Source: Candidatus Doudnabacteria bacterium
Lineage (GTDB): Bacteria; Patescibacteriota; Doudnabacteria; UBA920
Reading direction: 5' to 3'
Length of the DNA: 64,000 nucleotides
Assembly: GCA_963837465.1 (NCBI GenBank)
Contig: CAWINB010000001.1
Coordinates: 139,915 to 203,914 of the forward strand
Shown: positions 1,042 to 60,575 of the stretch, in pieces
Layout: each line of letters begins with the position of its first letter
How positions within the stretch are numbered: the stretch's first letter is position 1
Translations under genes and position numbers: made by a program
Notes under the pieces: generated by a model
What the model saw: the letters and a program-made list of their open reading frames with translations, nothing else
Told to the model about the DNA's origin: nothing
Database searches by the model: none

Positions 1042-1043
1042 GC

Positions 1044-1077
1044 AAAAAAATCTCCGTCAACTGACGGAGATTTTTTT
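1044..1077 (+). terminator. Rho-independent terminator after rplU
   Basis: Perfect hairpin tctccgtca-ac-tgacggaga followed by a T7 tract. Confidence 0.65.
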
Positions 1078-1247
1078 ATGGATTAAGCATGCTTTAATGT
1101 CAGCTGCCTGACATCTTTTTGCAGCTGGACAATGTCTTTGGCAACGGCATTGCTGTTTTCTTTGCCGCGTTTGTCAATCCTGTTAACTTTTTCTTCAATA
1201 TTAGCCGTCTTGAATTTCAAAAAAACAAGATCTTCCTTATGCGGAAT

Positions 1248-1859
1248 TTAGTATTCCCTCCGCCCTTCCATCGCTCTCATTAAAGTAATGTCGTCCGCGT
1301 ATTCCAAGTCACCGCCCATAGGCAGGCCTCGGGCAATGCGGGTGATTTTTATTTCCGGGTTGGCGGATTTAATAAATTTTTGCAGGTGCATAGCGGTTGT
1401 TTCGCCTTCAAGGGACGGGTTCGTCGCGATAATGATCTCCATAATTCCTGATTCATAATTCCTGATTCTTTCCAGCAGACTTTCCACTTCCAAATTTTCC
1501 GGGCCAATCCCTTCCAGGGGATTGAGCACCCCGCCCAAAACGTGGAAAACGCCCTTAAACTGTCCGGACTTGTCTATGGCCTGGGCATCCAGCGGTTCTT
1601 CCACAACACAGACTATTGAATGGTCGCGTTTTGGATCGTTGCAGGTAGAACACGGATCAGCTTCGCCCATATTGTGGCAGACGGAACAAAAAACAATGCC
1701 GCTTTTTACCTGAGCCACCGCCTGGGACAGGTTCCCGATATCAATATCGTCTTTTTTCAGCAAATAAAAAGCCAGCCGCTGGGCGGTTTTTGGCCCAATG
1801 CCGGGAAGACGACTGAGCTCGTTGATTAATTTTTGGAGACTAGTTGGTAGTTTAGTCAT
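1248..1859 (-). CDS. recR: Recombination protein RecR
   Basis: HhH N-terminus (LPGIGPKTAQRLAF), C4 zinc finger CSVCHN...C, Toprim region. Confidence 0.9.
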   Translation of the reverse strand: MTKLPTSLQKLINELSRLPGIGPKTAQRLAFYLLKKDDIDIGNLSQAVAQVKSGIVFCSVCHNMGEADPCSTCNDPKRDHSIVCVVEEPLDAQAIDKSGQFKGVFHVLGGVLNPLEGIGPENLEVESLLERIRNYESGIMEIIIATNPSLEGETTAMHLQKFIKSANPEIKITRIARGLPMGGDLEYADDITLMRAMEGRREY

Positions 1860-1967
1860 TGTTCTTTAAAATTTTGCAGTTTTAATTTCAAATTTCCAAT
1901 TCCAAATATCAGATAAAGTCCTGATTCCTAAATTCAGCATTTGTCATTCATTTGAAATTTGAAATTA

Positions 1968-3356: not shown

Positions 3357-3459
3357 ATATCGTCTTTGTATTATAGCTTGTTTTTGACTGCCGCGAAAGA
3401 TTAAAAATGCCCTGGTTTAGGGCATTTTGCGGGTTTGATGTGGAAGGACAGGGGATAGC

Positions 3460-4902
3460 TTAAGTTTTTATTATTTTACGGGTTTTCTGGCCCCCGGGCG
3501 TATCCATAATTTCGTAGCCCAGGTTTTGCGCTTGTTTCCTGAGTTCGTCGGCTTTTTTAAAATCTTTTTGTTCGCGGGCCTCCTGCCTTTGGCGGATTAA
3601 ATTTTTTATATCCCCGGGCAGTTCAATATCTTCGAAAATACTGGGCGAATCCGCCAAGTTAAAACCCAAAACCCGGTCCAGATTTTTTAAGATGGAATCC
3701 TGGGTATTTATATTAAGCTGTTTGTCGCCAACCGCTTCCCAAAGCAGCGCGGCCAAAGAGGGGATATTTAAATCATCGGCTAAAACCCCGGAAGCTTTAT
3801 CGGTATAATATTTCAGAAGCTCCTCCTGCGGCGGCTGGTTATCGCCGATGATTTTATGGGACTTAAGGATATTGTAGATTTTTTCCAGGGCCTTATAAGA
3901 AGCAATAAAGCTGTCCATTGTAAAATTCTGCCGGGCGCGATAGCCGCTCTGGCTGTATAAATGGCGCAAAACAATTCCGGCCAGCGGAACCTTGTCTTTT
4001 AAATCGCGGATGGTGTAAAAATTATTAAACCGTTTACCCATTCGCCCGCCATCCACCAAAATATGCTCGCTGTGCGTCCATTGGCGGACAAACTTCCCTT
4101 TGCCGAGCAGCCCCTGCGACTGCGCGATTTCGTTGGTATGGTGGGGGAATATCAAGTCCACTCCGCCGGTATGGATGTCCGTAACTTCGCCGCCGAACCC
4201 CATTTGGTTTATTGCCGAACATTCAATGTGCCAGCCCGGGCGCCCTCTGCCCAAAACCGGGTGCTCCCAAAAAATCTGTCCGTCGCTTTTTTCATCGCGC
4301 GCTTTCCACAAAGCAAAATCGCTGAGGTCGTCTTTGTCGTATTCGTCCACAGCTACCCGGGCGCCGACTTTTTTGCCCTCTATGAATTTTTGCCCCACCA
4401 GCTCGCCGTAGTCGCCAAAGTCCTTTTGGTATTTTTCAATGCTAAAGTAAGTGCTGCCGTCTTCGGCTTTGTAAGCGTATCCTTTGTCAATCAACCCCAC
4501 TACAAAATCCTGGATCCGCGGGATGACATCCGTTACCCGAATAAATTTTATTTCATCCTTTAAAACATTAACCTCAGCCAAATCATTTAAAAACTCTTTC
4601 AGATAAAAACCGGTAAATTCCCGCAAATCTTTTACGGTCGCGGAGGTCCCGTATTTGGCAACCGCCCCCTTAATGGTTTTATCGTCAACGTCAGTAATAT
4701 TCATTACCCAGCTGGGCTTATATCCCTGATGTTTTAAAGTCCGGTACAGAAAGTCGGCCGTAATGTAAGCCCGTAAATTGCCGATATGGGCGTAATTATA
4801 AACCGTCGGTCCGCAAGTATATAAATTTACTTTATTATCCTTAAGCGAATCAAACTGTTCATTTTTTTTTGTTAGAGTGTTATAAAGTTTTAACATAGAC
4901 AA
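3460..4902 (-). CDS. cysS: Cysteinyl-tRNA synthetase
   Basis: Class I aaRS HIGN motif (CGPTVYNYAHIGN), KMSKS-like GRMGKRF, CysRS zinc-binding Cys; 480 aa. Confidence 0.9.
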   Translation of the reverse strand: MSMLKLYNTLTKKNEQFDSLKDNKVNLYTCGPTVYNYAHIGNLRAYITADFLYRTLKHQGYKPSWVMNITDVDDKTIKGAVAKYGTSATVKDLREFTGFYLKEFLNDLAEVNVLKDEIKFIRVTDVIPRIQDFVVGLIDKGYAYKAEDGSTYFSIEKYQKDFGDYGELVGQKFIEGKKVGARVAVDEYDKDDLSDFALWKARDEKSDGQIFWEHPVLGRGRPGWHIECSAINQMGFGGEVTDIHTGGVDLIFPHHTNEIAQSQGLLGKGKFVRQWTHSEHILVDGGRMGKRFNNFYTIRDLKDKVPLAGIVLRHLYSQSGYRARQNFTMDSFIASYKALEKIYNILKSHKIIGDNQPPQEELLKYYTDKASGVLADDLNIPSLAALLWEAVGDKQLNINTQDSILKNLDRVLGFNLADSPSIFEDIELPGDIKNLIRQRQEAREQKDFKKADELRKQAQNLGYEIMDTPGGQKTRKIIKT

Positions 4903-8610: not shown

Positions 8611-8892
8611 ATGGCTCATAAAAAAGCAGGCGGCAGTACAGCTTTAGGCCGCGATTCAGTATCAAAAAGATTAGGCGTTAAAATTTTTGGCAACCAGGCC
8701 GTAAAAAAAGGCCAGGTTATTGTGCGCCAAAAAGGCACCAAATACCACCCCGGCAAAAACGTCGACATTGGCGGCGACAGCACTTTATACTCCCTGGCCG
8801 ATGGCTTAGTGCATTTTCAAAACAAGATGATGAAAAAATTCCACGGGAATTTACGCAGGACACGGATTGTGAATGTGGTAGCCGCAAAGTAA
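8611..8892 (+). CDS. rpmA: 50S ribosomal protein L27
   Basis: [16 protein letters not shown]...[19 protein letters not shown] is canonical L27. Confidence 0.9.
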
Positions 8893-8913
8893 ACCGCATC
8901 AATAAAAATTTTA

Positions 8914-8948
8914 AAACCCCGCCCATATGGGCGGGGTTTATTTTTCTA
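8914..8948. terminator. Rho-independent terminator (possibly bidirectional) after rpmA
   Basis: Hairpin ccccgcccatatgggcgggg followed by tttattttt. Confidence 0.65.
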
Positions 8949-9660
8949 TTAATTTAGATATCTTATCTCTCCATCTTCTAAGCTGAGCAAGTCGCATAGC
9001 ATCGTCTACAGGAGCTAAGACCTTTTTTAATTTATAATTCTTGGCCTTACCGGAGACCTGGCCTATGTCCACAAAATGAACTCTTTGCCCTGATTCAGAG
9101 CTCCCGTCCGATATTACAATATTCCCGGAGAACCTGGGGTTATGAAGAAAATTACCCAAAAAATATCTGGTATCGGAATATAAATCCGGAATTTTTCTAT
9201 CGGTTTCCCTTGCTTTTTTTATTATTTTTATACAGGCATTAACAAATTCTAGCAGCTCCGGGAGTAAGGTTGGATCACCATAAAGCTCTTGGTCACTTAA
9301 TGACTCTACCCTTTTACCCGAGATCGGCTTTTGGACTACGTAAGCCCGCGCGGGGTCAGATTCTTTATTCCTTGCTTTTATGAAACTGCTTTCTACGACA
9401 AATTTGCCGAAATCCGGATCGCCTTTATAAAATCGTAAAAAGCCTTAAGCTTCGGCATTTCTTTGTCATCCGCATATTCAGTGAGTCGATTTTCCTTTAA
9501 TATAATATCGACGTCCTTAGAAGTGCCACCCCTAACTTTAACTCCCAAAGAATAGACATCTGAGTCCTTCCCTGACTTTGCAAAAAGTTCAGAACTTTGG
9601 ATGTTAAAAGGTAACTTGTTTTCTGTCGGGTCTATTCCGCGATTTTTTTCGGGCGTAAAT
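8938..9660 (-). pseudogene. Decayed protein-kinase-like/phosphotransferase (Kdo/RIO/APH-like) gene remnant
   Basis: Only a 73-aa ORF (8938–9159) survives, carrying HNPRFSGNIVI...VHFVDIGQ (kinase catalytic loop and DFG-like motif); the remaining ~500 nt to pyrG lack a long ORF in any frame. Confidence 0.35.
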
Positions 9661-11358
9661 TTATTTCTTTAACTTTAACACAGCTTTCATAAACCCCGCG
9701 AACAAAGGATGCGGCGATAACGGGCGCGACAGGAATTCGGGGTGGAATTGGGTACCGATAAAAAAGGGATGGTTTTTGAGTTCAATTATTTCCACGAGTT
9801 TGCCGTCCGGAGTTGTACCCGCGATAGTTAGACCGGCTTTAACCAGCTGGTCGCGGTAGGCGTTGTTAAATTCAAAGCGGTGGCGGTGGCGCTCGCTTAT
9901 TTTTGGCTTGCCGGTTTTTTGTATCCATTTGCCTTCCAGGTAACATTTTTCCGTCAGCGTGCCGCGCTCCACCAGGCAATCCCAGGCGCCCAGGCGCATT
10001 GTCGCGCCGTATTCGCGGTTGAGCAATTTCTTTTCCTGGTCCGGCATAATGTGGATTACCGGATGCAGAGTATCGTCATCAACTTCGGTCGTGTTGGCGC
10101 CTTTAAGTCCGGCCACGTTGCGCGCGAATTCAATACTGGCCATTTGCATGCCGTAGCATAAACCTAAGTAAGGAATTTTATTTTCCCGCGCGTATTTTAT
10201 GGTTTCTATCATTCCTTCCGTGCCGCGCGTGCCGAAACCGCCCGGCACGACTATACCGTCAAAACCGGATAAAACCTTTTTGGCGCCCTGTTTTTCCACG
10301 TCAATGCTGGAGACCCACTCTAAATTTACCTTTACGTTATTGGCCCAGCTGCCGTGCTTAATGGCTTCCACCACTGAAACATAAACATCTCCAAGTTTGT
10401 AATCGCCTGTTTCGTAATATTTACCCACTACCGCTATGTTAATTTGGTCTTTATGGGAGTTAATTTTAGTTATTTTATCGGCCAGGTTTTTCCACTCGCC
10501 CAAGTTATTCTTTTTGGATTTCATGGAAAACTTAGCCAAAATTTTGTCCGTTAAATCCTGTTTGTCAAAATTCATCGGCACCTTATAGATACTGTCCGCG
10601 TTCGGAGCCGCGATAATATTTTCCGCCGGCACGTTGCAGGTCCAGGCCAAAGTTTCGCGCCTTCTGTCGTCTATGGGCAATTCGGCTCGGGCAATAATAA
10701 AATCGGGCTGGATGCCGCTGCCGATTAGCAGGCGTACGGAAGTTTGCGCCGGCTTGCTCTTCATTTCCCCCACGCTGGGCGGCGTTGGCAAATAGGCCAC
10801 ATGGACGTGGATAACGTCGCGGCCGTCGCGGTACTTCATTATCCGGTTGGCTTCCATAAACAAAATATTCTGGTACTCCCCCACCGTGCCGCCAATTTCG
10901 GCTATGACAAAATCCGCTTTTCTTTCCCGCGCGGCTTTTTCCAAACGCCGAATTATTTCTTCCGGCACATGCAAAGCCACCTCTACATCTTCTCCATCAT
11001 ACTCAAAATTCCGCTCTTTACGGATAATTTCCTGGTAAATTTGGCCGTTGGTCACGTAATTGGTGCTGGACAAATCGCTGTTTAAAAATCTTTCGTAATT
11101 TCCCACATCCTGGTCGGTTTCCACGCCATCTTTAGTTACAAAAACTTCCCCGTGTTCCTGCGGCCTTATGGTTCCGGCATCCACGTTTAAGTACATATCG
11201 CACTTAACCGGCGCCACTTTGTACCCGCGGCTTTCCAAAAGCGCGGCAATCGATGCCGTGGTAATCCCCTTGCCGACGGAACTAATAACTCCGCCGGAAA
11301 CAAAAATAAATTTAGTATCCAGCTTCTTGGCTTTGCGCGGTTTTATGTGATAGGACAT
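9661..11358 (-). CDS. pyrG: CTP synthase
   Basis: N-terminal synthetase domain (KFIFVSGGVISSVGKG) and C-terminal glutamine amidotransferase (GLCYGMQ, HPEF); 565 aa. Confidence 0.95.
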   Translation of the reverse strand: MSYHIKPRKAKKLDTKFIFVSGGVISSVGKGITTASIAALLESRGYKVAPVKCDMYLNVDAGTIRPQEHGEVFVTKDGVETDQDVGNYERFLNSDLSSTNYVTNGQIYQEIIRKERNFEYDGEDVEVALHVPEEIIRRLEKAARERKADFVIAEIGGTVGEYQNILFMEANRIMKYRDGRDVIHVHVAYLPTPPSVGEMKSKPAQTSVRLLIGSGIQPDFIIARAELPIDDRRRETLAWTCNVPAENIIAAPNADSIYKVPMNFDKQDLTDKILAKFSMKSKKNNLGEWKNLADKITKINSHKDQINIAVVGKYYETGDYKLGDVYVSVVEAIKHGSWANNVKVNLEWVSSIDVEKQGAKKVLSGFDGIVVPGGFGTRGTEGMIETIKYARENKIPYLGLCYGMQMASIEFARNVAGLKGANTTEVDDDTLHPVIHIMPDQEKKLLNREYGATMRLGAWDCLVERGTLTEKCYLEGKWIQKTGKPKISERHRHRFEFNNAYRDQLVKAGLTIAGTTPDGKLVEIIELKNHPFFIGTQFHPEFLSRPLSPHPLFAGFMKAVLKLKK

Positions 11359-11404
11359 AGGGAGTTTATGGTTTTAGATTTAGGATTGAAAATTAAAAAA
11401 AGGA

Positions 11405-12097
11405 TCATTCTGTAAATTTGAAACTGGAAAGCATTTGGTTTAAAATTTCATTGTTTATATTGATTGCCGCGGCTTGATCCTGTGTTTCCTGGGGCGTGGC
11501 ATCGCTTTTACCATTTTCCATTATCCCCAGATAGCCAGCCTCACGCCAATATATGTTGGAGTTCAAAATATAGCAATAACCATTGTGGATTATATGGTAT
11601 TCGCTTACAGTACCCCTGGCGCCGCCCATGGCATCGTCCGAAGTATTATCATATAAAACATAAAAGTTATTACCATTAATTTCCTTTGTCTCCGTTAAAT
11701 CTTTCGGATTGGCGCTGCCCGGATCGTCTTTTAGACACATGCTTAAGTTGACGCTGTTATTATCGGCAAAAACAGAAAATAAGGAGCTGTCAATATAGTT
11801 GCTTTTTCCGGAAAAACTCGCCACCTCAGAAATTTCATATTCAAAATACGGCTGTTTGCCTGGGCTGTCGTTTAACGAGTAGCTTGATGGGTACTTTAGC
11901 GTAAACCCATACTGGCTGTTGGTATAAGTTTTCCAATGGCTGGTTTCGCTCGGGACCTGGGTGTTCGCGGTTTCCAGTTCAATATCGGTTTTCTGCTCGT
12001 AGTACTCATTATAGTTTTTATAAACCAAAAGCCCAACGCCGCTGGTGAACAGGAAAACAATTACCAGGAAGAATATGGATTGTTGCCGGTTGGTCAT
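11405..12097 (-). CDS. Hypothetical secreted/membrane-anchored protein
   Basis: N-terminal TM helix; no recognisable domain. Confidence 0.4.
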   Translation of the reverse strand: MTNRQQSIFFLVIVFLFTSGVGLLVYKNYNEYYEQKTDIELETANTQVPSETSHWKTYTNSQYGFTLKYPSSYSLNDSPGKQPYFEYEISEVASFSGKSNYIDSSLFSVFADNNSVNLSMCLKDDPGSANPKDLTETKEINGNNFYVLYDNTSDDAMGGARGTVSEYHIIHNGYCYILNSNIYWREAGYLGIMENGKSDATPQETQDQAAAININNEILNQMLSSFKFTE

Positions 12098-45831: not shown

Positions 45832-46189
45832 TTTTGCACCCTGTTTTGTTTCTGTTTTTGGTTAGTTTTTAGTTTGGTATTTTAGTATATTTTTAGAGTA
45901 TATAGATAGTAGTATTTTAAGTATTTTAGTAGTTAGTATTTCTTTCCATTATTTTTCTTTGTCTGCCAGTGGAAATCGTGGTGATAGTCAAGGTTTGTGG
46001 TTTAAGAAAAGGTAATGGAATTAGGGTGTTTAGGAACTTTACTAGTTGAACCCGGATTCAACTAGCTGTTCAACTAGTTTGTACCCCCATTTTAAATCAA
46101 AAAACAGCCCTAAGCAAGAGCTGTTTTAGGGTAGCCAAGGTCAGCTGTTTTGGGTATAATAGGTTTGTAAAATATCGAATAAGGGTACC
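45832..46189. repeat. IR-b, copy B (inverted); overlaps the last 30 codons of the second recombinase
   Basis: Reverse complement of 33706–34061. Confidence 0.85.
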
Positions 46190-47703
46190 ATCGGCGATTT
46201 TAGAGCGGGTTGCAATCAGATCGAAGGGAGAACTCGGCGTGATCTCCAGGAGTTTTCCGTTCAGTACCCGGTTCGAGGTCAGAGAATCTACCATTTCGCG
46301 TTTTTCCGGCATGATGCCGACTTTGTACGCTGAATACGCGGTGTTCGCGCGTTCGAGAATTTCTAGCAGCTCATCGGCGACATTGCGGTTGCCGCTTTCC
46401 CAGCCAGAGAGTGTTTCCGACGTTTCCAGGCGCTCCGTGAGGAGCGCCGTTTTTCGTTGCTCGAACAGATCCTTTTCGACCAGCCGGTCGATGTAGGCAT
46501 CGGTGAGGCGGTTCAGCCGGTCGTCAATCTGGCCGAGCTTCAGCTTGAGGGCGGCGATGGCATCCTCGGTTTGCTTGTGACTGTCAGCTTTCAACCGGCG
46601 GAGTTCCTGCCAGCAGTATTGCTGCTCATCGGGAAGCAGCCGTAGTTGAAGGAGGGTTTCGAGAAATGAATTCTCGGCAACCTCTTCCCGGATCGCTGTT
46701 GTGGGACACTCGCGAGTTTGGCAGCGGTAGTAGACGAACCCCTTGTGAGTTTCGCCGATCAGGGTATGGCCGCAACCTTTGCAACTCAGCCTGCGGCGAA
46801 ACAGAAAATCATGGCGGTTGGTCCGCGTGTTGGTTTTTCCGTGGAGCACATCCTGGACGCGCTGAAAGAGCGCCTTGGAGATTAGAGGCTGGTGAGCTCC
46901 GAGGAAGGACTGACCGGAAACCTTGATGTGGATGAGGCCCATGTAGAAAGTATTGTTCAGCAATTTGGTCAGGCCGTTCATGGTGACCTGCTTGCCACTG
47001 CGCCCGCGCAAGCCGATGCGTTCGGCTTCGTGAAGTAGATCGTGAAAATTGGCCGTGCCGGTGGAATACTTTTCAAACAGATGGCGCACCAGGGGCGCAG
47101 TCTTGGGGTCTGGCTCCTTAGGTTTGCCGCTGCTGATGTTCCGATACCCCAGCGGGGCTGGCATGGGCAATATGCCTTGCTTGAGCCGTCCATAGAATCC
47201 CTTCTTGGTTTCTTCTTTGAGGTTGCGGATGAAATCGGATGCCACAACCGCTTGGATGTCCGCCGAGAGTCGTCCGCCGCGAGAATTGAGGTCCAGACCT
47301 TCGTTGGCGAAGTGGACTTCGACGCCACGGTCGATGATTTCGCCGAGGTCAGCCCAATCCTTGAGGTTGCGGGCGGAGCGGTCGATCTTGTGAATGACCA
47401 CACCGCGAACCGTGCCAGATCTCAGCCGCCTGATCATCTGGGTGAACACCGGGTGTCGGACGGCAAGAGGAAGCCATCACAGTCCCAGCAATCCGGCGTA
47501 GTCGCTCCGGGTGGCAACACGTACGGGGAAGTATCGAAAATAGACCGCTCCCTCTCATGCTTCGGGCCGTAAACGACCAAGTGCTCTGCGGTCTGATTTG
47601 TGCACTGGCCCCAGCCGCGTCCGCGGAGAATACGGAATGGCGGACGAATCAGGTCTCCATAATCCAGATCGAACAACAGCATGTCCTCCGCTCGGCACTT
47701 CAT
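46097..47703 (-). pseudogene. Second large serine recombinase with a disrupted N-terminal catalytic region
   Basis: The 450-aa ORF (46097–47449) starts inside the resolvase domain (GVVIHKIDRSARNL) and keeps the recombinase, zinc-ribbon (C..C...C...C) and coiled-coil parts. The upstream catalytic segment is scattered across three frames (...VRVATRSDYAGLLGL* ; ...DCDGFLLPSDTRCSPR*). Confidence 0.55.
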
Positions 47704-47754: not shown

Positions 47755-48471
47755 CTAAGGTTGCCACCGCCAGTTGGACCGGTATACATCAACGACGCCA
47801 AATTCTTTACCTGGGCTCCAACTACGTGACTCCCACATGAGCTGGCGAGCGCTACCGCCAAATTTACTACTGTCCAACATCACGTCGAATACTGCCTTGG
47901 TAATGTATGTAGAGAAGCCGACCTCCCGGATCGCGCTGAGCTTCGCCGCAATGTTCGGGGCTCGGCCTACCCACACCAGATCATTATTATTGCGAATTCC
48001 GCTCCGAACTACCATTATTTTGCTCGTGTCTATGCCAACGGTTTGACTCAATGGCAGGCCAGAGGGAAACGACCCCTTATAGAACGCATTAAATTCCGGG
48101 GTCAAAATTTGATTAAAAAAATAATTGATCTTGAGGCCCGCTTCGACCGCGTTCGTATTTTTCGCGCCCTCGATAAAGACGCCCATAACCCGGTCACCGT
48201 CAAAGCTTCGAATCTCACCCCCCAGCGCACGAATAATTCTCGTAGTGCCCATTAGATACGCCTTGAACACTTCAGCCGCGACCGACTGGTTAGCAATGGC
48301 CAGCCGAGTGGAGTCGTGCAGATCAGCATAAACGAAGGTAGCATCCAGGTTGACGCCCTCGTTGCCAAGGGCGAGGTCTTCGGTCTCAGGAACCACCGTC
48401 CCGTCCCGGCGTGTCCAGGCATCATGGACGACTTTGGCGGTTTCATTCTTAAGATCGTCGAGAAGAGTCAT
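47755..48471 (-). CDS. Class III nucleotidyl cyclase (CHD) domain protein, candidate Pycsar PycC-like cyclase
   Basis: Motifs ATFVYADLHDST and GDRVMGVF typical of the adenylyl/guanylyl cyclase catalytic domain; ~238 aa from the internal Met; one-nucleotide gap to the upstream TM gene. Confidence 0.55.
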   Translation of the reverse strand: MTLLDDLKNETAKVVHDAWTRRDGTVVPETEDLALGNEGVNLDATFVYADLHDSTRLAIANQSVAAEVFKAYLMGTTRIIRALGGEIRSFDGDRVMGVFIEGAKNTNAVEAGLKINYFFNQILTPEFNAFYKGSFPSGLPLSQTVGIDTSKIMVVRSGIRNNNDLVWVGRAPNIAAKLSAIREVGFSTYITKAVFDVMLDSSKFGGSARQLMWESRSWSPGKEFGVVDVYRSNWRWQP

Positions 48472-48472
48472 A

Positions 48473-48988
48473 TTAGTGAAATAGGGTTGAACGGGTTGGA
48501 GCTGTATACGCCGCAAATAACGCGAGCGCGGCAAGCCATGGAAGGAGAGCCAGCGCGAGAAACGTGAAGGCCGCTTTTAGCGCATCAAACTTTGCTGTCA
48601 GTATTTCCGAATTCCGCCACACCTGTGCCAAGAGATCGTTAACGTGCCCGTCTTCATTCTGCTGCTTGAATTGTTCGATAAAGTGGTGCTCCGTACGACC
48701 TGCTATCTGTCGAAAATAAACCAAGGACGAATTGCCTCCCTTAAGACTGGGGAATGCGCCACGATACAAAAACACAATGCTCACGCCCAAGAGAACCACA
48801 CAGATACCGGCGGACGTTGACATCGGCCAGGTTAACGCTTTGAGTGGTGGTGCGTCGGTAGCCAACACGGCTAACATTCCCGTATCTACCGCGAGTATCA
48901 CAGAAAGCTTTGAATCTACACGCGGGAAAAAGCTCAATACTCGATCGAGTTGATCTTTGCTCGCAGCGTATATAGTTTCAGTCTTCAT
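48473..48988 (-). CDS. Small transmembrane protein (2 to 3 TM), candidate cyclic-nucleotide-activated effector
   Basis: 171 aa; hydrophobic helices at ~30–75 and 140–165; translationally coupled to the cyclase. Confidence 0.45.
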   Translation of the reverse strand: MKTETIYAASKDQLDRVLSFFPRVDSKLSVILAVDTGMLAVLATDAPPLKALTWPMSTSAGICVVLLGVSIVFLYRGAFPSLKGGNSSLVYFRQIAGRTEHHFIEQFKQQNEDGHVNDLLAQVWRNSEILTAKFDALKAAFTFLALALLPWLAALALFAAYTAPTRSTLFH

Positions 48989-49153
48989 ATAGGCTTGGGG
49001 CGCAGCCTAGCAAATGCGTCTGCGCAGTAAATATGTTAAATTGCGCTCAGACAAAAGATATTATTAGAATCATAACTCTCGAATTCCGAGGCGTCAAGAA
49101 CTCAAGGCCGCATATTTGAAAGGCGAACTCGCTCGAAGTCCCGCTGGGTTCAC

Positions 49154-49477
49154 TCATGTCCGAGGAATAAACACGCCGAAAATCTTTACGATGTCCGAAC
49201 GTTCAAGCGGCTTGTCGGTCAAGTTGAACACATGCATGATGGTCGACCAGTGACACGCGAGGTTGTCCGCGAGCAACTGGGCTTGAGTGGCGAATGGCTC
49301 AAAGGGCACGCTGCGACGACTCAGAGCCGAGACACGCGTTTCAGCCAAGTGCCACTGGCCATATAGATCCTCGGGAGGACGCACGAGGACCAGATTCCAG
49401 CCTTCCCGATCCCGCGCGTTTTCGTTGATCTCAATATAACCACCATGTGCGACATGACGCCGCTCCAAAGTTGTCAT
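49154..49477 (-). CDS. Hypothetical protein (107 aa), operon gene 3
   Basis: Start overlaps the stop of the upstream gene. Confidence 0.4.
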   Translation of the reverse strand: MTTLERRHVAHGGYIEINENARDREGWNLVLVRPPEDLYGQWHLAETRVSALSRRSVPFEPFATQAQLLADNLACHWSTIMHVFNLTDKPLERSDIVKIFGVFIPRT

Positions 49478-49893
49478 CCTGCCAGGAACAATAGGATTTG
49501 CAAACAGCTCGCCACGATGAAAGAACCGGACACGTAAGGCCCGCCCACCAAAGCGGTATTTTTTCCGTCCGCAGCGGTAGCTGTGACGATCTTGGTTTCC
49601 GCGAGATGCCTATTGATCTCCTCGACGATCTCGTCAACCATCGCAATCAACTCCTCTTCTTTGTATCGATTCCTAGCAGCCGTGTCCCTTTCGGACTTCG
49701 CAATCCGCTGCTGCTCAAGTGTCGCCGCTTCGACCGCGTCGTGGTGTTGGCGCATCCTGGCGGCTAGCGCACCGATGGCGGATTCCCTTGGGGCCGGAGC
49801 AGTCTCCAGGCATCCAGAACCTCCCGCGCTGTTTGGTGACGGGCACGCGGATCCTTGGTCAAGAGCCTCTTGCCCAACTTTCCGGTTAAACAT
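49474..49893 (-). CDS. Hypothetical protein (139 aa), operon gene 2
   Basis: Overlaps the downstream gene by 4 nt (translational coupling). Confidence 0.4.
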   Translation of the reverse strand: MFNRKVGQEALDQGSACPSPNSAGGSGCLETAPAPRESAIGALAARMRQHHDAVEAATLEQQRIAKSERDTAARNRYKEEELIAMVDEIVEEINRHLAETKIVTATAADGKNTALVGGPYVSGSFIVASCLQILLFLAG

Positions 49894-49941
49894 TCACCAA
49901 TCATAAGATTTTTCTAAAAGATAGCAGCACAAGGCCCGACG

Positions 49942-51015
49942 TCAATCCCCCCTTTCGGCGCCGCCATCGAAACAAACACTGCCGTTCGAAGCCAGGGTAT
50001 CTCTAAAGTATGTTGCCAGATCGGCATTCCACACGAAGAAAGCCTGTGCTATAAGGCTGAAGGCGTCGCGATCAATCGGCTCGTCGATCCTGAAGATTTT
50101 CATCCGTACTCCGGTTTTCCCGAGTTTTCTGAGATGATCTTTCTGCCGTTCTTCAAATTGCTCGCCGTTGTAAATCCTCAGCGCCCCGTCGAAATGCGTA
50201 ATGGATTGGCTGCCCGGATCGTAAATCGCGTGAAGGTAACGGGCACCGGCGAATGGGATACGATCCCTGGGTGGAAGCTCCTCACAGACGAAATGGATTC
50301 CATCGCCACGTGGGCTCCAGCAGAATTCGGTAACTTGACTCCTGTCCCACGGCTTATCGGCCCGCATTTGCCCGAAGTGCTGTTCTCTCAATCGACCTAT
50401 GTCGTTCCAGGTCAGCGGCGCGGCATACACAATCATCTTGTACATGGTCTGCGGGAAAGAATCGCACGGACCCCAAAGAAATGGGTCGAGCCGGACGCTG
50501 ACGGAATTGGCGACACCCTGCTCATAAAACGACCGTAGTAGCCAATAAGTTGAATTGGGAGATTCGGTAGTTGTACAGACCGTGAAGTCGAACCCGTTGG
50601 CCTCAAGGGTTGAATTGTTGTAACTAAACTCCGCCAGTCTGACCATACCTTCACCATCCACGGTGACGCCGCGCAGACAATCGGCGGTGTAAGGTAGTGT
50701 CTGCGCGGAAGAGAAGGTTTCCGCTAGGATCTCCAATCGGCGGCGCGCCGCTTCATTGGTGAGGAGCGCATCTGCGACCCAGATCCGTGCAAGGCGTTCA
50801 TTCTTTCCGTGAAGTGCAAGGAAGGTCGGGTCCTGGAAGGCGGCCTCGACCGCCTTCGTCGGCAAACTCGAAAGTAACCGCGACAGGTCGGGATACAGGG
50901 ACCACGTCGACTCATTTGAGTTTTTAAGCAATTTGTCGAACGGGGCGAGCGGATCGGAAGCAAAGTCGCGCACGAGATCTTCCGGAAGCTTCACCCGTAT
51001 CCCATTGAACTGCAT
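49942..51015 (-). CDS. Hypothetical protein (357 aa), first gene of an unknown three-gene operon
   Basis: High GC; no recognised motif. Confidence 0.4.
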   Translation of the reverse strand: MQFNGIRVKLPEDLVRDFASDPLAPFDKLLKNSNESTWSLYPDLSRLLSSLPTKAVEAAFQDPTFLALHGKNERLARIWVADALLTNEAARRRLEILAETFSSAQTLPYTADCLRGVTVDGEGMVRLAEFSYNNSTLEANGFDFTVCTTTESPNSTYWLLRSFYEQGVANSVSVRLDPFLWGPCDSFPQTMYKMIVYAAPLTWNDIGRLREQHFGQMRADKPWDRSQVTEFCWSPRGDGIHFVCEELPPRDRIPFAGARYLHAIYDPGSQSITHFDGALRIYNGEQFEERQKDHLRKLGKTGVRMKIFRIDEPIDRDAFSLIAQAFFVWNADLATYFRDTLASNGSVCFDGGAERGD

Positions 51016-51199
51016 AGTCTTCTTGCCTTTCTAGTTCCAGCATATCCTGGACGCGTCCCGCTGTCCAGAAGAGCTCTAAACGGCAGTTCAACATCGCGTT
51101 TGTCGATACCTCCATCGAACACGCCCGTTCATTTGACAAGACTTCTAGGGCGGACCATTATATAAGTAGAATTAGAATATCTATTAACGTCAGCGTTTT

Positions 51200-51649
51200 A
51201 TGGTCGCTCTCGAATTTACATTAGGACACGTACACCTCAAGGTGAAAGACGTTGAAAGGGCAACTGCCTTCTATACAAATGTTTTCGGGCTTAAGGTTGC
51301 CGAGCGGGTCGGCAACTATGTATTCCTCTCGTTTGGCCAGAGGTATCATCACGACTTGGCCATACACGAAGTTCCGGCGGACGCGGCAGTGCCCGGCCTT
51401 AAAGATGTAGGCCTTTATCATTTTGCCCTTGAAGTTGCCGACATTCGGCAACTCGCATTGTTGTACCGCAAGCTAAAGCAATTAAATGTGGCCGTCAAGC
51501 CGGTTGATCACGGAATCAGCAAGGTGATATATTTCAGCGACCCCGACGGCAATGGCATAGAGGTCTACGTTGACACACGAAGTGAAACCGGACAGCAGGA
51601 ATGGCAAGGAAAATCCACGCCGCTAAACCTTGAGGATGTCATGGTGTGA
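51200..51649 (+). CDS. VOC (glyoxalase / bleomycin-resistance / dioxygenase) superfamily protein
   Basis: HVHLKVKDVERATAFYTNVFGL...HHDLA...HFALEV pattern. Confidence 0.7.
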   Translation: MVALEFTLGHVHLKVKDVERATAFYTNVFGLKVAERVGNYVFLSFGQRYHHDLAIHEVPADAAVPGLKDVGLYHFALEVADIRQLALLYRKLKQLNVAVKPVDHGISKVIYFSDPDGNGIEVYVDTRSETGQQEWQGKSTPLNLEDVMV

Positions 51650-52428: not shown

Positions 52429-52479
52429 CGGTGGACTTGGGACAAGCTTGTCCACCGTCTCGCAGAAAAAATGGACTTC

Positions 52480-52700
52480 CCGCCAAGTTTTCCCTCCTAT
52501 ACAAACCTTTAAGTTCTGCTATTCTATCTTTGCCACGATCAAAGCCGCCGAGCGGGGTGCTGGCCGCGCGGCAGGCTTGATCGATGAGCAAACTCATGCC
52601 GCAATCTTTTCTTTCGACTCTTGTTTGCGTTGGAGCAAATCCATTATCGCGGGCAGAAGGCGCTTCCACGTTCGATGTATGTCCCGTCTCGGGCTACCAA
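52480..52700. repeat. R-family ~230 bp repeat, copy 1 (core ctattctayctttgccacgatcaaagc...gcttccacgttcgatgtatgtcccgtctcgggctacca)
   Basis: Copies at ~55195–55430, ~59085–59345 and a truncated one at ~60105–60235. Confidence 0.75.
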
Positions 52701-54408: not shown

Positions 54409-55070
54409 CAATGGCTTCAATAATTAATCTGATTGTTCTAATGAAGAGGTACTTGTTTATCTTTGTAATGAGCTGTCTTTCTGCGGGTTGCAGTCGGGTA
54501 AACGTGGCGACAAATGAACCGGCGGTTCAGCCCGACGTTCGACTGAACCCGCCCCGGAACGCTTCTAAATCGCCGGTCAGCTTGATGGGTGTAACAGCCA
54601 ATGGCACCACTACGCAGGACTCTCAACCCGGCGATTGGACTACATACACGGACACTGCTTATGGCTTTAGCCTGAACATTCCAGCCGGATACGTTTATGC
54701 CACGTCGACAGCGGAGCGCGGATGGTCGCCTGTGCTAATTGTCTACGACCCAGAGAATTTACCCATAGCCAGTGAGCCAGCTGTTACTGTTTATGTTTCA
54801 ACAATCACTAGCAAGGAGCAGGAATCGCCTTCTTATCTGCTTCAGCAAGAAGGCATACCCCCGGCAGCGGCTACAGTCACCCCAACAAGGTTTGCGGGAT
54901 GCCTAGCCACCCAAATTATTATCGAGAACACGGACGGAGGATACCCGGTTGAGGACCAGATGTTCGTAGCCCACGACGGTCTTGAATATTCAATCAGATA
55001 TACCGCGCGCGACAATACGACATTCGCAAGGATTGCTTCGTCCTTTGTATTCCTCGCAACTGGTTGTTGA
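54409..55070 (+). CDS. Putative lipoprotein (lipobox LSAGC)
   Basis: Signal peptide plus lipobox; the 3' 240 nt is duplicated at 59751–59987. Confidence 0.5.
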
Positions 55071-55282
55071 CTCTTAGCTTGATACTCCGCTTCACCTTCA
55101 AAGGATGATGGCGTTTTCGTGGGGTTGAGTCCGATTAGCCCAGAGCGAAAAGAATTGGCAAGAGCTCAAGATATCCACCGAGCGGGTCAATTCTTGGAAG
55201 TTGAGCCAATGTTTCCCTCCTTTGCAAGCGTCTGAGTTCTTGCTATTCTACTTTTGCCACGATCAAAGCAGCCGCGCAGGGT
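54835..55282. repeat. ~448 bp direct repeat, copy D1 (3' end of the lipoprotein gene plus downstream R repeat)
   Basis: Near-identical to 59751–60199 apart from a diverged ~70 nt patch. Confidence 0.8.
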
Positions 55283-55430
55283 GCTGGCCGCACGGCATGC
55301 TTGATCGAGGAGAACCATTTAGGCCGCAATCTTTTCTGTAGACTCTTGTTTGCGTTGGAGCAAGCTCAGCATCCTGGGCAGAAGACGCTTCCACGTTCGA
55401 TGTATGTCCCGTCTCGGGCTACCAGGAATC
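55195..55430. repeat. R-family repeat, copy 2
   Basis: See copy 1. Confidence 0.7.
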
Positions 55431-55650
55431 CCATTCAACTTTTCCCTCCCTAAAAGAAGAATTCACCCGCAGAAATGCGGGTTTTTCATTGGCGCAGATT
55501 CAGCCCTTGGCCAGAATTGTCCACAGGCCATTGGGGAATCGAACTGACAGGCGGTTTCCCGCATGGGAAAGCGTAGTAGTGGTGCAGATTTGACACCCAC
55601 ACAAAAGGTGTGTAAACTACAAATATAAGATCATTAACCTAGAAACTTCC

Positions 55651-55920
55651 ATGAGCAAACGTATTAACATCATGCTGCCGGAAAGAACCCTGGCCGTGCT
55701 GGACCGGGTGGCTTCCAAAGGCAACCGCAGCCAGTTTGTGTCTAGGGCCGTGCTCCACTACGTGGAAATCCAGGGCAAACAAAGCCTGCGCCAGCAGCTT
55801 AAAGCCGGCTATATGGCCAATGCCGATGAGAACCTAAAGATTGCCGCGGAGTGGTTTCCCCTTGAGGAACAAGCATGGCAAAAGTCCCGCACCAGCCAAA
55901 AGGCCAAAAGCAAAAAGTAG
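55651..55920 (+). CDS. Ribbon-helix-helix (CopG-like) antitoxin
   Basis: KRINIMLPERTLAVLDRVASKGNRSQFVSRAV is the RHH fold signature. Confidence 0.7.
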   Translation: MSKRINIMLPERTLAVLDRVASKGNRSQFVSRAVLHYVEIQGKQSLRQQLKAGYMANADENLKIAAEWFPLEEQAWQKSRTSQKAKSKK

Positions 55921-56273
55921 AAGGCATCCGAAGGGGTGAAGTCTACCTCTGCTCTTTTGACCCGACGGTCGGCCACGAAATCAAGAAGACCCGGCCCGCC
56001 CTGGTCGTCCAAAACGATGTCGGCAATCGCTATGGTCCCCTGACGATTGTCGCGGCAATCACTTCCAGCGTTTCCCCTGTCCCCTATCCGGTCGAGGTTG
56101 TCGTTGAACCGACCGCCGCCAACGGCCTGGATGTCCGCTCTTCCGTTCGCCTGGACCAGATCCGCACCATAGACCGGCAGCGCCTGATTCGTCATTTGGG
56201 CGTAGTGGATTCCGCCACCATGGCCAGGGTCGATGAGGCCATCAAGATTAGCTTGGGGCTGATTAGAGTTTAG
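55875..56273 (+). CDS. MazF/PemK-family endoribonuclease toxin
   Basis: RGEVYLCSFDPTVGHEIKKTRPALVVQNDVGN is the PemK/MazF signature; overlaps the antitoxin gene. Confidence 0.8.
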   Translation: MAKVPHQPKGQKQKVEGIRRGEVYLCSFDPTVGHEIKKTRPALVVQNDVGNRYGPLTIVAAITSSVSPVPYPVEVVVEPTAANGLDVRSSVRLDQIRTIDRQRLIRHLGVVDSATMARVDEAIKISLGLIRV

Positions 56274-57009: not shown

Positions 57010-57879
57010 ATGATTGACGATCCAGGCGAACAATTCAAAGAGCAGCTCGACAATGCAATGAGTCACGGTAATGGTCCGAAAGCCGCCCGTTTTGCGTTGG
57101 CCTGCCTAGGCGTGATTCCCGGCGTCGGCGGGGCAATCGCCGGCATTGCTGGCTCGTGGTCAGAACGAGAGCAGGCCGAGTTTAACCGTATCTTTTCCGC
57201 TTGGCTCAAGCTCCAAGAGGATGAAATTCGGGAGATCGGCATGACCATATTCGAAGTCATGAACCGTCTCGACCAAAATGATGAAGAAATCCGAAAGCGC
57301 ATTGAAAGCCCGGAATACCTCAAGCTGGTTAAAAAATGCTTCCGGGATTGGTCGGCAGCCGAAAGTGAAGAGAAGCGCGCCCTAATCAGAAATCTTCTCA
57401 GTAATGCGGCAGCGACCAAGCTCTGCTCCGATGACGTCATTCGAATGTTCATCGAGTGGATCGATAAATATTCTGAACCGCATTTTGCGGTCATCAGGCA
57501 CATTTTTAAGACACCCGGCTCGACGCGCCGTGAAGTTTGGGCTGAAATCCACGGTGCCGACGTTCGCGAGGATTCTGCTGAGGCCGACCTCTTCAAGCTC
57601 TTGGTTCACGATTTGAGTACCGGCCATGTGATTCGTCAGCACCGGGAGAAGGATTACTATGGCAACTTCGTTAAAAGAGAACCACAGAGGAAGGGCCGCG
57701 GGGAGGCAAGCCGCGTCATGACATCTGCATTCGATGACGACAAACAATACGAACTCACGGAACTCGGCAAGCAGTTCGTACACTACACGATGAATGAAAT
57801 CGTGCCGAAGATTGCCGCTCCGAGCGCAAATCCAGTGGCGAGCGAGCAAGGCCGCGCCGCCGCACCAAGCCAGTCATAG
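57010..57879 (+). CDS. Hypothetical protein (289 aa)
   Basis: No recognised domain; adjacent to the Abi-like gene. Confidence 0.4.
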   Translation: MIDDPGEQFKEQLDNAMSHGNGPKAARFALACLGVIPGVGGAIAGIAGSWSEREQAEFNRIFSAWLKLQEDEIREIGMTIFEVMNRLDQNDEEIRKRIESPEYLKLVKKCFRDWSAAESEEKRALIRNLLSNAAATKLCSDDVIRMFIEWIDKYSEPHFAVIRHIFKTPGSTRREVWAEIHGADVREDSAEADLFKLLVHDLSTGHVIRQHREKDYYGNFVKREPQRKGRGEASRVMTSAFDDDKQYELTELGKQFVHYTMNEIVPKIAAPSANPVASEQGRAAAPSQS

Positions 57880-57907
57880 AATATTAAACTTCCTACACAG
57901 AGGCAAT

Positions 57908-58837
57908 ATGAATTCATCATTGAAACAACAACCTCTAATAGCGGAGGTCCTTCCTGGCCTCGCCGTGCTGGCGGTTCTCGCTGTATCATATTGCGTCACC
58001 CACCCTCAGCAGCTGAGCGAGCTCTTGCACCTGCCGAGCGCTGGCGTGATCGTGACCGGGATCGGTGTTGGAGGATTCTTTTTATCCTGGATCATCGGGA
58101 CCTTTTTGGACGCGGTTAGAAATGCTTGCGAAGCACTTTTGGACATGCGCTGGCCCATCGACTGGAGTTTCCTGTTTACGGCCTCAGTAGATGAAATCAA
58201 GAAACTCGACGATTCTTTTCTTGCATACTATTTTCTTGACGGGAACTATGTAGCCGGATTTGCCATTCTCCTCATCCTCAAGGGCCTTGGCCTGGTTCAC
58301 ATCCCGCTACTGCCACTCGGTATTGTTTTCCTCATCTTTCTAGCCAATGCCACATTCCTTAGAATCGAAATCAAAAATCTGATAGACCGCCAAAACGAGC
58401 AACGCGGCAATGTAGGGCCTCATTGGCCCCACATTGGGGTCTATACCCGGTTGGCACCGTCGCAGATACACCAGGGTGGAATCGGGGTGATGGCCATTCG
58501 GGACATCAAAGAAGGCACCTCTGTATTTGAACCCGATGACGACGATATGGTCTGGGTTGAGTCTGGGGTCGTAGGCGCATTGCCGGCACAGTTGCGGAAA
58601 CTCTATGACGACTTCGCGGTTATCCACGACCACCGTTACGGATGTCCCCGCAGTTTCAACAAGCTTACAATCGCCTGGTACTTAAATTCATCGAAGAATC
58701 CCAATGTGGCAAGCGATGCGGATTATAAGTTTTATGCAGTTCGTGATATTGCTCAGGGTGAAGAATTGACCGCAGACTACGATACTTATAGCGATGCACC
58801 GGAATCACTTCCAAAAACGCCCGCCAGTGTTGAGTGA
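57908..58837 (+). CDS. Membrane-anchored SET-domain protein
   Basis: 4 to 5 N-terminal TM helices, then SET motifs (GIGVMAIRDIKEGTSVFEP; YLNSSKNPN; EELTADYD). Confidence 0.6.
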   Translation: MNSSLKQQPLIAEVLPGLAVLAVLAVSYCVTHPQQLSELLHLPSAGVIVTGIGVGGFFLSWIIGTFLDAVRNACEALLDMRWPIDWSFLFTASVDEIKKLDDSFLAYYFLDGNYVAGFAILLILKGLGLVHIPLLPLGIVFLIFLANATFLRIEIKNLIDRQNEQRGNVGPHWPHIGVYTRLAPSQIHQGGIGVMAIRDIKEGTSVFEPDDDDMVWVESGVVGALPAQLRKLYDDFAVIHDHRYGCPRSFNKLTIAWYLNSSKNPNVASDADYKFYAVRDIAQGEELTADYDTYSDAPESLPKTPASVE

Positions 58838-59084: not shown

Positions 59085-59345
59085 GGCAAGATATCCACCG
59101 CATAAGCAAAGGTTACGGAACTTCCGCCAACTTTTCCCTGTTATTCAAAACCTTTGAGTACTGCTATTCTACTTCTGCCACGATCAAAGCCGCCATGCGG
59201 AAATGTTGTCGCACAGCGTGCTTGATCTAAGAAATAAAATCAGGCCGCAATCTCTTCTGTAGACTCTTGTTTGCGTTGAAGCAAGCTCAGCATCCTGGGC
59301 AGAAGACGCTTCCACGTTCGATGTATGTCCCGTCTCGGGCTACCA
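59085..59345. repeat. R-family repeat, copy 3
   Basis: See copy 1. Confidence 0.7.
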
Positions 59346-59525
59346 CGAGTTTCCGTTATCGAGGGATGTTGAAGCATCAAGCTGCCTAGAAAAGTTCTAG
59401 TCGTTGATGCGTCACAAAATCCAATCAATAGTGTAAGCTCGCAAAAACACGACCAACGTTGATCATGTTTTTGTTAAAATAATTACAAAATTTTAAAATT
59501 GTGGGTTTGACAAACAAGCCAGATT

Positions 59526-59987
59526 TTGGTAAACTATATATACAAAGTGCTATTTCGGCACTTTCTTTTTTTAAGAAACAAAATGCCTAACTCTTTATCA
59601 CAAGTCGCTGTAAAAGAGATTGTTCCTACAGGTCTAACCAAGCTCGACTATGGAACTTTTGACATATTGCTGGAAAAGTCCAATCCCTTTTCTGCCGAGA
59701 ACCCAGTTTTTGATTTAACGGGAATTACCAGGACCAGGAATCACCCTCATATCTGCTTCAGCAAGAAGGCATACCCCCGGAAGCGGCTACAGTCACCCCA
59801 ACAAGGTTTGCGGGATGCCCGGCCACCGAAATTATCGCCAAAAACACTGCCGGAAGGATACCCGGTTGAGGACCAGATGTTCGTAGCCCACGACGGTCTT
59901 GAATATTCAATCAGATATACCGCGCGCGACAATACGACATTCGCAAGGATTGCTTCGTCCTTTGTATTCCTCGCAACTGGTTGTTGA
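59526..59987 (+). pseudogene. Duplicated 3' fragment of the 54409–55070 lipoprotein gene fused to an unrelated 5' leader
   Basis: The last ~45 aa are identical to the lipoprotein (GYPVEDQMFVAHDGLEYSIRYTARDNTTFARIASSFVFLATGC); upstream reading is frame-shifted relative to D1. Confidence 0.5.
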
Positions 59988-60199
59988 CTCTTAGCTTGAT
60001 ACTCCGCTTCACCTTCAAAGGATGATGGCGTTTTCGTGGGGTTGAGTCCGATTAGCCCAGAGCGAAAAGAATTGGCAAGAGCTCAAGATATCCACCGAGC
60101 GGGTCAATTCTTGGAAGTTGAGCCAATGTTTCCCTCCTTTGCAAGCGTCTGAGTTCTTGCTATTCTACTTTTGCCACGATCAAAGCAGCCGCGCAGGGT
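59751..60199. repeat. ~448 bp direct repeat, copy D2 (includes the truncated R copy 4)
   Basis: See D1. Confidence 0.8.
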
Positions 60200-60236
60200 A
60201 CTCTGTGCGCGCGGCAAGCTTGATCGATGAGCAAAC

Positions 60237-60575
60237 TTGGGAGTGGCAAAATCTTTTATGAAAACTATTATAAAAACCGCCCTGTTTAATTCTCTCTCAA
60301 CGGCAGTTTATGTAGCGCTGGTAGGGTCGTTTTTTTACTTAGCCGGGCAAAAAAAATTCGGCGATGGACATACTGTGTTTATCCCTATTTTCCTTTTAAT
60401 GCTCTTGGTATTTTCCGTCGCGCTAACGGGAGCGTTAATTTTTGGCCGGCCCGTGCTTTGGTATTTGGAAGGCAAAAAGCAAGACGCTCTGTCGCTACTG
60501 GTTTATACCTTAGGAAGCTTTTTTATTATCACATTGCTCGCGTTCCTTGGTATGATAATCTTTATACACCCATAG
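60237..60575 (+). CDS. Small three-TM membrane protein
   Basis: 112 aa; host-like AT-rich composition. Confidence 0.45.
   Translation: MGVAKSFMKTIIKTALFNSLSTAVYVALVGSFFYLAGQKKFGDGHTVFIPIFLLMLLVFSVALTGALIFGRPVLWYLEGKKQDALSLLVYTLGSFFIITLLAFLGMIIFIHP

Follow-up and report, generated by a model that had tools for sequence, protein, structure and literature searches.

A presumed three-gene operon in a defence-rich island of a Doudnabacteria contig is probably one broken kinase gene beside an autonomous orphan gene

Do three genes of no recognizable family, which lie on one strand next to a bacterial immune system, make up a new multi-component defence operon? The question is raised by a locus in a 64,000-nucleotide stretch of Candidatus Doudnabacteria contig CAWINB010000001.1 (positions 139,915 to 203,914; hereafter the window, with positions counted from its first letter). 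An earlier note, made from the sequence alone, had described here a tightly coupled operon of three overlapping open reading frames (ORFs) of 357, 139 and 107 amino acids (aa), and had proposed it as a possible new immune system. All three minus-strand ORFs were found where they had been placed, and the absence of recognizable motifs was borne out, as profile searches of the three ORFs against Pfam, PADLOC, NCBIfam and PHROGs gave nothing above noise. The overlap applies to the 139-aa and 107-aa ORFs, which share 4 nt (ATGA), but not to the 357-aa ORF, which is separated from the 139-aa ORF by a 48-nt gap. Our analysis indicates that the three-gene operon is very probably an artefact of pseudogene fragmentation, and that the real content of the locus is one pseudogene and one autonomous orphan gene. 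The ORFs, the pseudogene and its lesions are as follows.

49942-51015, minus strand: 357-aa ORF, taken from the ORF list
49474-49893, minus strand: 139-aa ORF, an artefactual reading as judged from frames and alignment
49154-49477, minus strand: 107-aa ORF, the last 107 codons of a C-terminal domain (CTD)
49154-49904, minus strand: remnant of a Ser/Thr kinase-linker-CTD pseudogene, in three successive frames, from alignment to intact relatives
49869-49874, minus strand: junction (GGC/AAG) of a 723-bp in-frame deletion, with the break at 49872/49871, from alignment to related locus L014
49809/49808, minus strand: first 1-nt deletion, GATGCC-TGGAG in the window versus GATGCCTTGGAG in intact relatives (alignment column 73)
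49561/49560, minus strand: second 1-nt deletion, GGAAAA-AATACC in the window versus GGAAAAGAATACC in intact relatives (alignment column 325)

Database searches showed that the two smaller ORFs are not independent genes. The 139-aa ORF has a single homologue, P0122 (219 aa), which covers 74% of the ORF, and the 107-aa ORF has 18 homologues, several of which (150-219 aa) reach further upstream. P0122 is continuous across the 139/107 boundary (...HLAETKI...DGKEYRFGGRTLRIQFF...VPGRM...HGGYIEI...) and reads DGKEYRFGG at the site of the frameshift; the window divides this peptide between frame 2 (...HLAETKIVTATAADGK) and frame 1 (YRFGGRALRVRFFHRGELFANPIVPGRMTTLERRHVAHGGYIEI...). The 107-aa ORF begins at the Met conserved in the VPGRM motif, and the homologous coding sequence extends upstream of it in the same frame. 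The ATGA overlap consists of the codon of this conserved Met and an out-of-frame TGA made by the frameshift at 49561/49560. The apparent coupling of the two ORFs arose by chance from the second frameshift. The 139-aa ORF itself is a composite of ~28 codons that cover the kinase 3' end in the wrong frame, ~80 true linker codons (~29-108) and 31 codons of out-of-frame CTD.

The lesions were read from DNA alignments to the related loci L013, L014, L016 and L009, among which L013 shares 83.6% identity with the remnant over 721 nt. The start codon at 49904 and the first 11 codons (MIGECLTGKLG) survive in the window copy. The 723-bp deletion spans ~codons 12-252 of the intact gene, and with them all of the kinase catalytic domain, and the coding sequence rejoins at ...(K)RLLTKDPRARHQTAREVLDA. 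DNA alignment pairs window 50066-49882 with L014 3017-3213, and window 49872-49160 with L014 3937-4651. The start codon, MIGECLTG and the kinase tail KDPRARHQTAREVLDA share one frame in the window. The first 1-nt deletion reduces TT to T and moves the kinase frame into that of the 139-aa ORF, and the second turns AAAAGAA into AAAAAA and moves the frame of the 139-aa ORF into that of the 107-aa ORF. Three-frame translation gives a conceptual product that reads MIGECLTGKLGK joined across the deletion to RLLTKDPRARHQTAREVLDA, continues in the next frame as LETAPAP...AADGK, and ends in the third as (E)YRFGGRALRV...FIPRT followed by the stop codon. No window ORF matches the Pkinase domain of Pfam or the PD-T4-6 profile of PADLOC. 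As its sequence shows, no kinase can be made from the 139/107 region.

Scanning metagenomes with the family alignment of the remnant yielded 37 kinase loci, 15 of which contain one uninterrupted frame of 490-532 codons. In the intact relatives (L013, L014, L016, L019 and others), the product is a 488-aa protein consisting of an N-terminal kinase, a long coiled-coil linker and the CTD. The kinase matches the Pkinase domain of Pfam at 1e-42 to 1e-44, and the PADLOC models PD-T4-6 and mad6 at 1e-55 to 1e-61, these two over the kinase domain only. Homologous contigs show a Ser/Thr kinase either ahead of the gene or joined to it without a break, and the intact relatives sit among toxin-antitoxin, restriction-modification and recombinase genes. 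We propose that the remnant derives from such a Hanks-type Ser/Thr kinase of ~488 aa with a coiled-coil linker and a CTD, which would have been inactivated by the three lesions. The structural model of the CTD is confident (pLDDT 89.7) and shows a helix of 60 residues and, after it, an alpha/beta domain whose sheet is antiparallel; the CTD has no Pfam match, and its model has no fold match in the PDB. The linker and CTD also occur as a separate gene of ~212 aa directly 3' of a fusion of Peptidase_C14 (caspase) and DEAD/Helicase_C domains, in L038 (1016-aa fusion at 904-3954, CTD gene at 3983-4618) and L033 (857-3991 and 4007-4651), and also in L031. This arrangement suggests that the CTD is a module which pairs with different defence-like enzymes.

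The 357-aa ORF, for its part, is a real gene: it is intact and under purifying selection, with a dN/dS of 0.15 against the homologue of L006 and 0.086 against that of L007. The protein has 193 homologues at E<=1e-3 in a 90%-clustered database, all of them labelled "hypothetical", and the family profile gathers 983 clusters at 50% identity (E<=1e-3), or 174 at E<=1e-30. Family members are mostly 330-360 aa long and single-domain, and genome matches come from Acidobacteriota, Chloroflexota, Bacteroidota, Bacillota, Nitrospirota, Verrucomicrobiota and Gammaproteobacteria. All 33 invariant columns of the family alignment are kept in the window copy, and the family motifs include NST-W, RLDP, CEE-P, RY-H, H-DGA-R-Y, GK-G-R-K-F and FF-WN. 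P0001, the window's own protein, has no exact database record, and a cluster look-up returned neither names nor accessions for window proteins. A 134-aa antisense ORF (50134-50538, plus strand) lies inside the gene and turns up in 20 related loci; rather than a gene, it is most readily understood as a shadow that the conserved sense frame casts. The gene may have its own promoter, as suggested by the following site, a weak match in a consensus scan (4 sites in the region versus 1.7+/-1.5 expected).

51039-51067, minus strand: promoter-like site TGGACA-17-TATGCT, 24 nt before the 357-aa start codon, within the 184 nt that separate the gene from the upstream VOC gene

The AlphaFold2 model of the 357-aa protein is of good quality (pLDDT 87.3, pTM 0.85) and shows a helical N-terminal domain (~11-98), a beta-rich core (~120-310) and C-terminal helices. 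Structural similarity search of the model using Foldseek against the PDB and BFVD revealed nothing credible, with a best PDB E-value of 0.054 and a TM-score of at most 0.18. Searching the sequences of solved structures in the PDB, the family profile reached a best E of 8, and a 681-aa Pseudomonas relative found none. The protein likewise matches none of the 5027 PADLOC v2 models. Altogether, the checks that had been recommended in the earlier note (remote homology, structure prediction, Foldseek and defence-model searches) gave no known family for it and no credible fold match in the PDB or BFVD. Assignments of the core to the PD-(D/E)xK, HEPN Rx4-6H, ART R-S-E and tyrosine-recombinase RHRY types were dropped by eye for wrong order or spacing of the motifs. 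The conserved core suggests an enzyme or a binder of nucleic acids or nucleotides: in the model, a beta-sheet face carrying the invariant His, Asp, Arg, Tyr and Lys residues (of RY-H, H-DGA-R-Y and GK) would be the candidate active or binding site, and the helical N-terminal domain might act as a sensor or an oligomerization module.

The core is not confined to proteins of this size. Residues ~130-345, with RY-H and H-DGA-R-Y, are also found within proteins of ~690-750 aa from Bacillota, Bacteroidota and Pseudomonas (L091, L093-L100, L103, L105, L107 and L109-L112), and hhalign aligned the 357-aa core with the long Pseudomonas relative at 97.9% probability. The core is further found in a 351-aa hypothetical protein, WP_031655160.1, of the Pseudomonas aeruginosa megaplasmid pWTJH36 (L115 6974-8029), where it lies beside IS elements; this protein was reached only through the long relative, and no mention of it was found in the papers searched. 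Neither the ~700-aa relatives nor the megaplasmid protein contains a Pfam or PADLOC domain, and a tblastn search with the 357-aa protein itself against plasmid and phage collections gave no match.

DNA comparison showed that the homology to L006, L007 and L001 is gene-sized (window 51043-49964), beginning ~28 nt before the start codon and ending ~20 nt before the stop, with an identity of 80% to L006 and ~70% to L007, L008 and L001. Because the homology to these close relatives stops at the gene borders, the 357-aa gene moves as a one-gene block. All-against-all clustering of the ORFs in 64 loci that carry a 357-aa homologue revealed no recurrent neighbour family except integrases (9 loci); in particular, no small partner recurs beside the gene as in a type II toxin-antitoxin pair. 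No Pycsar-type cyclase is found among the family neighbours in other loci, and the small ORFs downstream of the homologue in L004 bear no relation to the 139-aa and 107-aa ORFs.

What, then, placed the two genes side by side, and is the broken state of the second one real? That the trio forms a translationally coupled three-component defence operon, as the earlier note proposed, draws on the common strand, the tight spacing, the ATGA overlap and the location in a defence island beside Pycsar. It is scarcely credible now that the 139-aa and 107-aa ORFs have proved to be two frames of one broken gene and the 357-aa gene to have a homology block of its own; the co-occurrence check finds the trio together in none of the 64 family loci and 37 kinase loci. 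A different account takes the 1-nt deletions for sequencing errors, so that the locus would encode a functional, kinase-less linker-CTD protein of ~248 aa, acting alone or with the 357-aa protein. Several observations do weigh against our reading of the region as a dead gene. The 723-bp deletion is in frame, and the second 1-nt deletion sits within an A6 run, where a homopolymer sequencing error is possible. The dN/dS of the remnant against intact copies is low, at 0.15-0.175, barely above the 0.10-0.14 among intact copies, and therefore the inactivation is recent relative to a dS of ~0.6, or the C-terminal part is still constrained. Moreover, the stand-alone ~212-aa genes that follow the Peptidase_C14-DEAD helicase fusions in L033 and L038 mean that a kinase-less product is not absurd in principle. 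Against the sequencing-error account, the first 1-nt deletion lies in a TT dinucleotide with no homopolymer run. Two frameshifts fall within 250 bp here, compared to >10 kb of neighbouring ORFs (one of 5.4 kb) that are unbroken; two so close together are unlikely to be assembly noise, because many long ORFs of the window, one of them 1797 aa long, are intact. Independent lesions also mark the same gene in other lineages (L009, L010/L021, L023, L035, L041/42 and, as a 3' fragment, L040), which points to recurrent decay and suggests that this kinase family decays often. The lesion positions vary between the lineages, on which ground programmed frameshifting in the kinase gene was rejected. Overall, we regard the sequencing-error account as improbable and retain the pseudogene.

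The adjacency of the 357-aa gene and the kinase has one counterpart. In L014, an intact 487-aa kinase gene (3191-4654) directly follows the last ~70 codons of a 357-like gene (2908-3138), and the window and L014 share 78% identity across the 357-gene end, the intergenic segment and the kinase start. One might suppose an ancestral system of two genes, the 357-aa gene as sensor or effector together with the kinase, now half decayed in the window, for which this common junction would speak. Yet the adjacency occurs in these two loci only, where it is shared by descent, and no such pair is found elsewhere, the 64 family loci having no adjacent kinase and the 37 kinase loci no other 357 homologue. 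The decay is also reciprocal: the window keeps the 357-aa gene and has lost the kinase domain, whereas L014 keeps the kinase and only a remnant of the 357-like gene, a pattern contrary to expectation for an obligate pair. A former two-gene system is thus very improbable. The arrangement is best read as one junction that the window and L014 inherited before losing opposite partners; since the pair is absent elsewhere, the adjacency appears to be historical, not functional.

If the 357-aa gene stands alone, is it an immune gene? This part of the earlier proposal, that a gene of new immune function may lie here, survives for the largest ORF and falls for the 139-aa and 107-aa ORFs. We propose that the 357-aa protein is an accessory protein working on its own, and that it is quite possibly a stand-alone protein directed against phages or mobile elements. 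The opposing view, also a substantial possibility, is that the family is not immune but ordinary accessory cargo on mobile elements, or else has a niche role in metabolism or regulation, and that its defence neighbours merely co-accumulate in variable regions. It agrees with the integrase, relaxase and IS genes that recur nearby, and with the lack of a recognizable effector domain in the 357-aa protein. A domain survey of the 148 nearest ORFs in 43 loci revealed heterogeneous Pfam contents (integrase, TrwC, IS1595, SIR2_2, DUF4062 and AAA_13), housekeeping neighbours such as aldo/keto reductases and MacB/FtsX were found too, and the context in L005 is mostly metabolic. These observations count against a defence role, the case for which is drawn from the neighbourhood alone. 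On the other side, at least 12 of the 148 immediate neighbours, a raw count taken with no background control, are strong PADLOC matches, and they belong to many different systems: DrmD and DrmMI (DISARM), a type III methyltransferase (MTase), Dsr1, SIR2 with HerA, NucC with a CD-NTase (CBASS), BrxH, and PDC-S05, PDC-S06, PDC-S46 and PDC-S49. The close relatives likewise lie among defence-like genes, in metagenomic contigs whose contexts all differ: caspase, Fic and integrase in one, GmrSD, AAA_13 and HsdR in another, PemK pairs, DUF5677, UvrD and a serine recombinase in a third, and a UvrD-like helicase with ThiF and Multi_ubiq in a further one. At the protein level, the family is also absent from the phage and plasmid collections, save for the distant megaplasmid relatives. 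Altogether, the neighbours support, without proving, a defence-island lifestyle, and the family is, on this evidence, a reasonable candidate for a single-gene defence system. The fullest version of the proposal is doubtful, namely that it represents a new single-gene anti-phage family with an undescribed fold and catalytic or binding site, spread as cargo of serine-recombinase cassettes in Acidobacteriota-like soil bacteria. In L007, genes for ThiF (E1-like) and Multi_ubiq (9480-11421) lie ~2.4 kb downstream of a 72%-identical 357-aa homologue, and this locus looks like a ubiquitin-like conjugation defence locus.

The surroundings of the trio are largely as the earlier note had them, with a Pycsar pair, a VOC gene and a PemK toxin-antitoxin pair all recovered nearby. 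The G+C content rises from ~0.40 to 0.52-0.57 at ~46 kb of the window, and the ORFs lie in a foreign, defence-rich island beside a genuine Pycsar pair. A weak DUF6879-like gene also lies upstream of the 357-aa gene on the opposite strand. The main features of the island are as follows.

46097-47449, minus strand: large serine recombinase ORF, truncated at both ends
47755-48534, minus strand: PycC (PADLOC 1.8e-82)
48473-48988, minus strand: PycTM (PADLOC 5e-54), directly downstream of the three ORFs
49108-49136, plus strand: 29-nt repeat vestige just downstream of the kinase remnant, a weak match (BLAST 86%, E=5e-4)
51200-51649, strand opposite to the 357-aa gene: VOC/glyoxalase gene, upstream and divergent
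52475-52699, 55196-55427, 59117-59348 and 60107-60237: direct repeats of ~230 nt
55651-56273: PemK toxin pair

Further copies of the ~230-nt direct repeat occur in L006 (1683-1854, 3986-4204 and 7440-7658) and L009 (2871-3034, 3924-4132, 5509-5732 and 8840-8943), and also in L015 and L017. The repeat parts cargo blocks from each other; in L006, L009, L015 and L017, it adjoins or runs into the 3' end of a large serine recombinase, which lies at the island end in L006, L009 and L015. The repeat holds a conserved, imperfect palindrome of ~49 nt (CGATCAAAGCCGCCG...CGGCA-GCTTGATCG) with a variable centre and four compensatory pairs, and the exact 19-mer GTCCCGTCTCGGGCTACCA closes three of the window copies. 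The repeat was also considered as an RNA or as the 3' end of a tRNA or tmRNA, as it ends in ...GGGCTACCA; this was rejected, with no Rfam match at E<=1, no ARAGORN match and no canonical T-arm by hand. The repeat may be the recombination site of a serine-recombinase cassette array, a role for which the imperfect palindrome with its four compensatory pairs gives the only support from sequence. In L009, a full repeat copy (8714-8945) follows the kinase stop at 8660, a position comparable to that of the vestige in the window.

The window recombinase lacks its first ~55 codons, matches the Resolvase profile over positions 52-143 only, and diverges from its relatives at the 3' end. In resolvases, the first ~55 codons include the catalytic serine region. 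The window recombinase is probably a pseudogene, and the island probably immobile. With its ~230-nt repeats, truncated recombinase, toxin-antitoxin genes and Pycsar pair, the island contains both the repeats and the recombinase expected of a cassette array. We propose that it is an eroding array in which cargo was swapped at the repeats, and that the 357-aa gene and the kinase remnant would be part of this cargo.

Several other observations concern the same island. An exact duplication of 300 nt (54938-55237 and 59855-60154, 100% identical), whose adjoining 125 nt (54814-54938 versus 59730-59854) are 88% identical, has its copies 4.9 kb apart and overlaps the start of two repeat copies, which indicates a recent segmental duplication or recombination within the island. 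The unit of repeat, 89-aa antitoxin and PemK toxin at window 55205-56261 is ~78% identical to two tandem copies in L006 (1683-2692 and 3986-5042), and it also occurs in L009 (6318-6991); it looks like a recurrent stabilizing cassette. The Pycsar pair is intact (47755-48988, minus strand), the gene of the PycTM effector preceding that of the PycC cyclase. The probable start of PycC is Met22 (ATG 48471), which lies 1 nt beyond the stop codon of PycTM, and a promoter-like site at 49097-49069 suggests that the pair is transcribed on its own. The island also encodes a 347-aa SET-domain (lysine methyltransferase) protein (57794-58837, plus strand), an odd cargo for a bacterial variable region.

Taken together, these results remove a false lead, as two of the three presumed genes would be the debris of a pseudogene. 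They also advise looking for frameshifted relatives of any small overlapping ORFs in a defence island before such ORFs are counted as components of a system. What remains is one candidate, from a large, conserved and unannotated family that has a confident model, polar residues that are invariant, and defence genes as frequent neighbours; it is a good lead of an ordinary kind, an unknown gene in a defence island. Should the family prove immune, it might add a new fold to the defence repertoire. The locus further offers what appears to be a snapshot of turnover in defence islands, in which two lineages inherited one junction and a different partner was destroyed in each.

How do the two genes and their island compare with known systems? 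The intact relatives of the remnant resemble the stand-alone Hanks-type kinases of defence islands (PD-T4-6, and the Stk2-type kinases of abortive infection) in being single proteins of 488 aa with an N-terminal Pkinase domain. They differ from the PD-T4-6 kinases in that the profile match covers the kinase domain only, and the window copy differs from all Hanks-type defence kinases in being frameshifted and devoid of the kinase domain. The PD-T4-6 models also pick up housekeeping PknB-like kinases in every Streptococcus thermophilus genome analysed (PMC11514479), and because they do so, membership of the present kinase family in the PD-T4-6 or Stk2 type is unproven. The 357-aa family resembles the PDC-S candidates of PADLOC, which were recognized by their embedding in defence islands, in its single gene, patchy phylogeny and variable, defence-rich neighbourhoods; unlike them, it lies outside all PADLOC v2 models and so is not a listed candidate. 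As for the island, SCCmec-type elements with large serine recombinases are reported to mobilize anti-phage genes (PMC10055296). In the comparison with such elements, the island repeat overlaps the recombinase 3' end and the window recombinase is truncated, with mobility being a prediction from sequence alone. Integron arrays stabilized by toxin-antitoxin genes offer another parallel, from which the island differs in having neither a tyrosine IntI nor attC-type sites. It is like both SCCmec-type and integron arrays in its overall organization, with a recombinase at one end, direct repeats, repeated antitoxin-PemK modules and defence cargo that appears to have been swapped.

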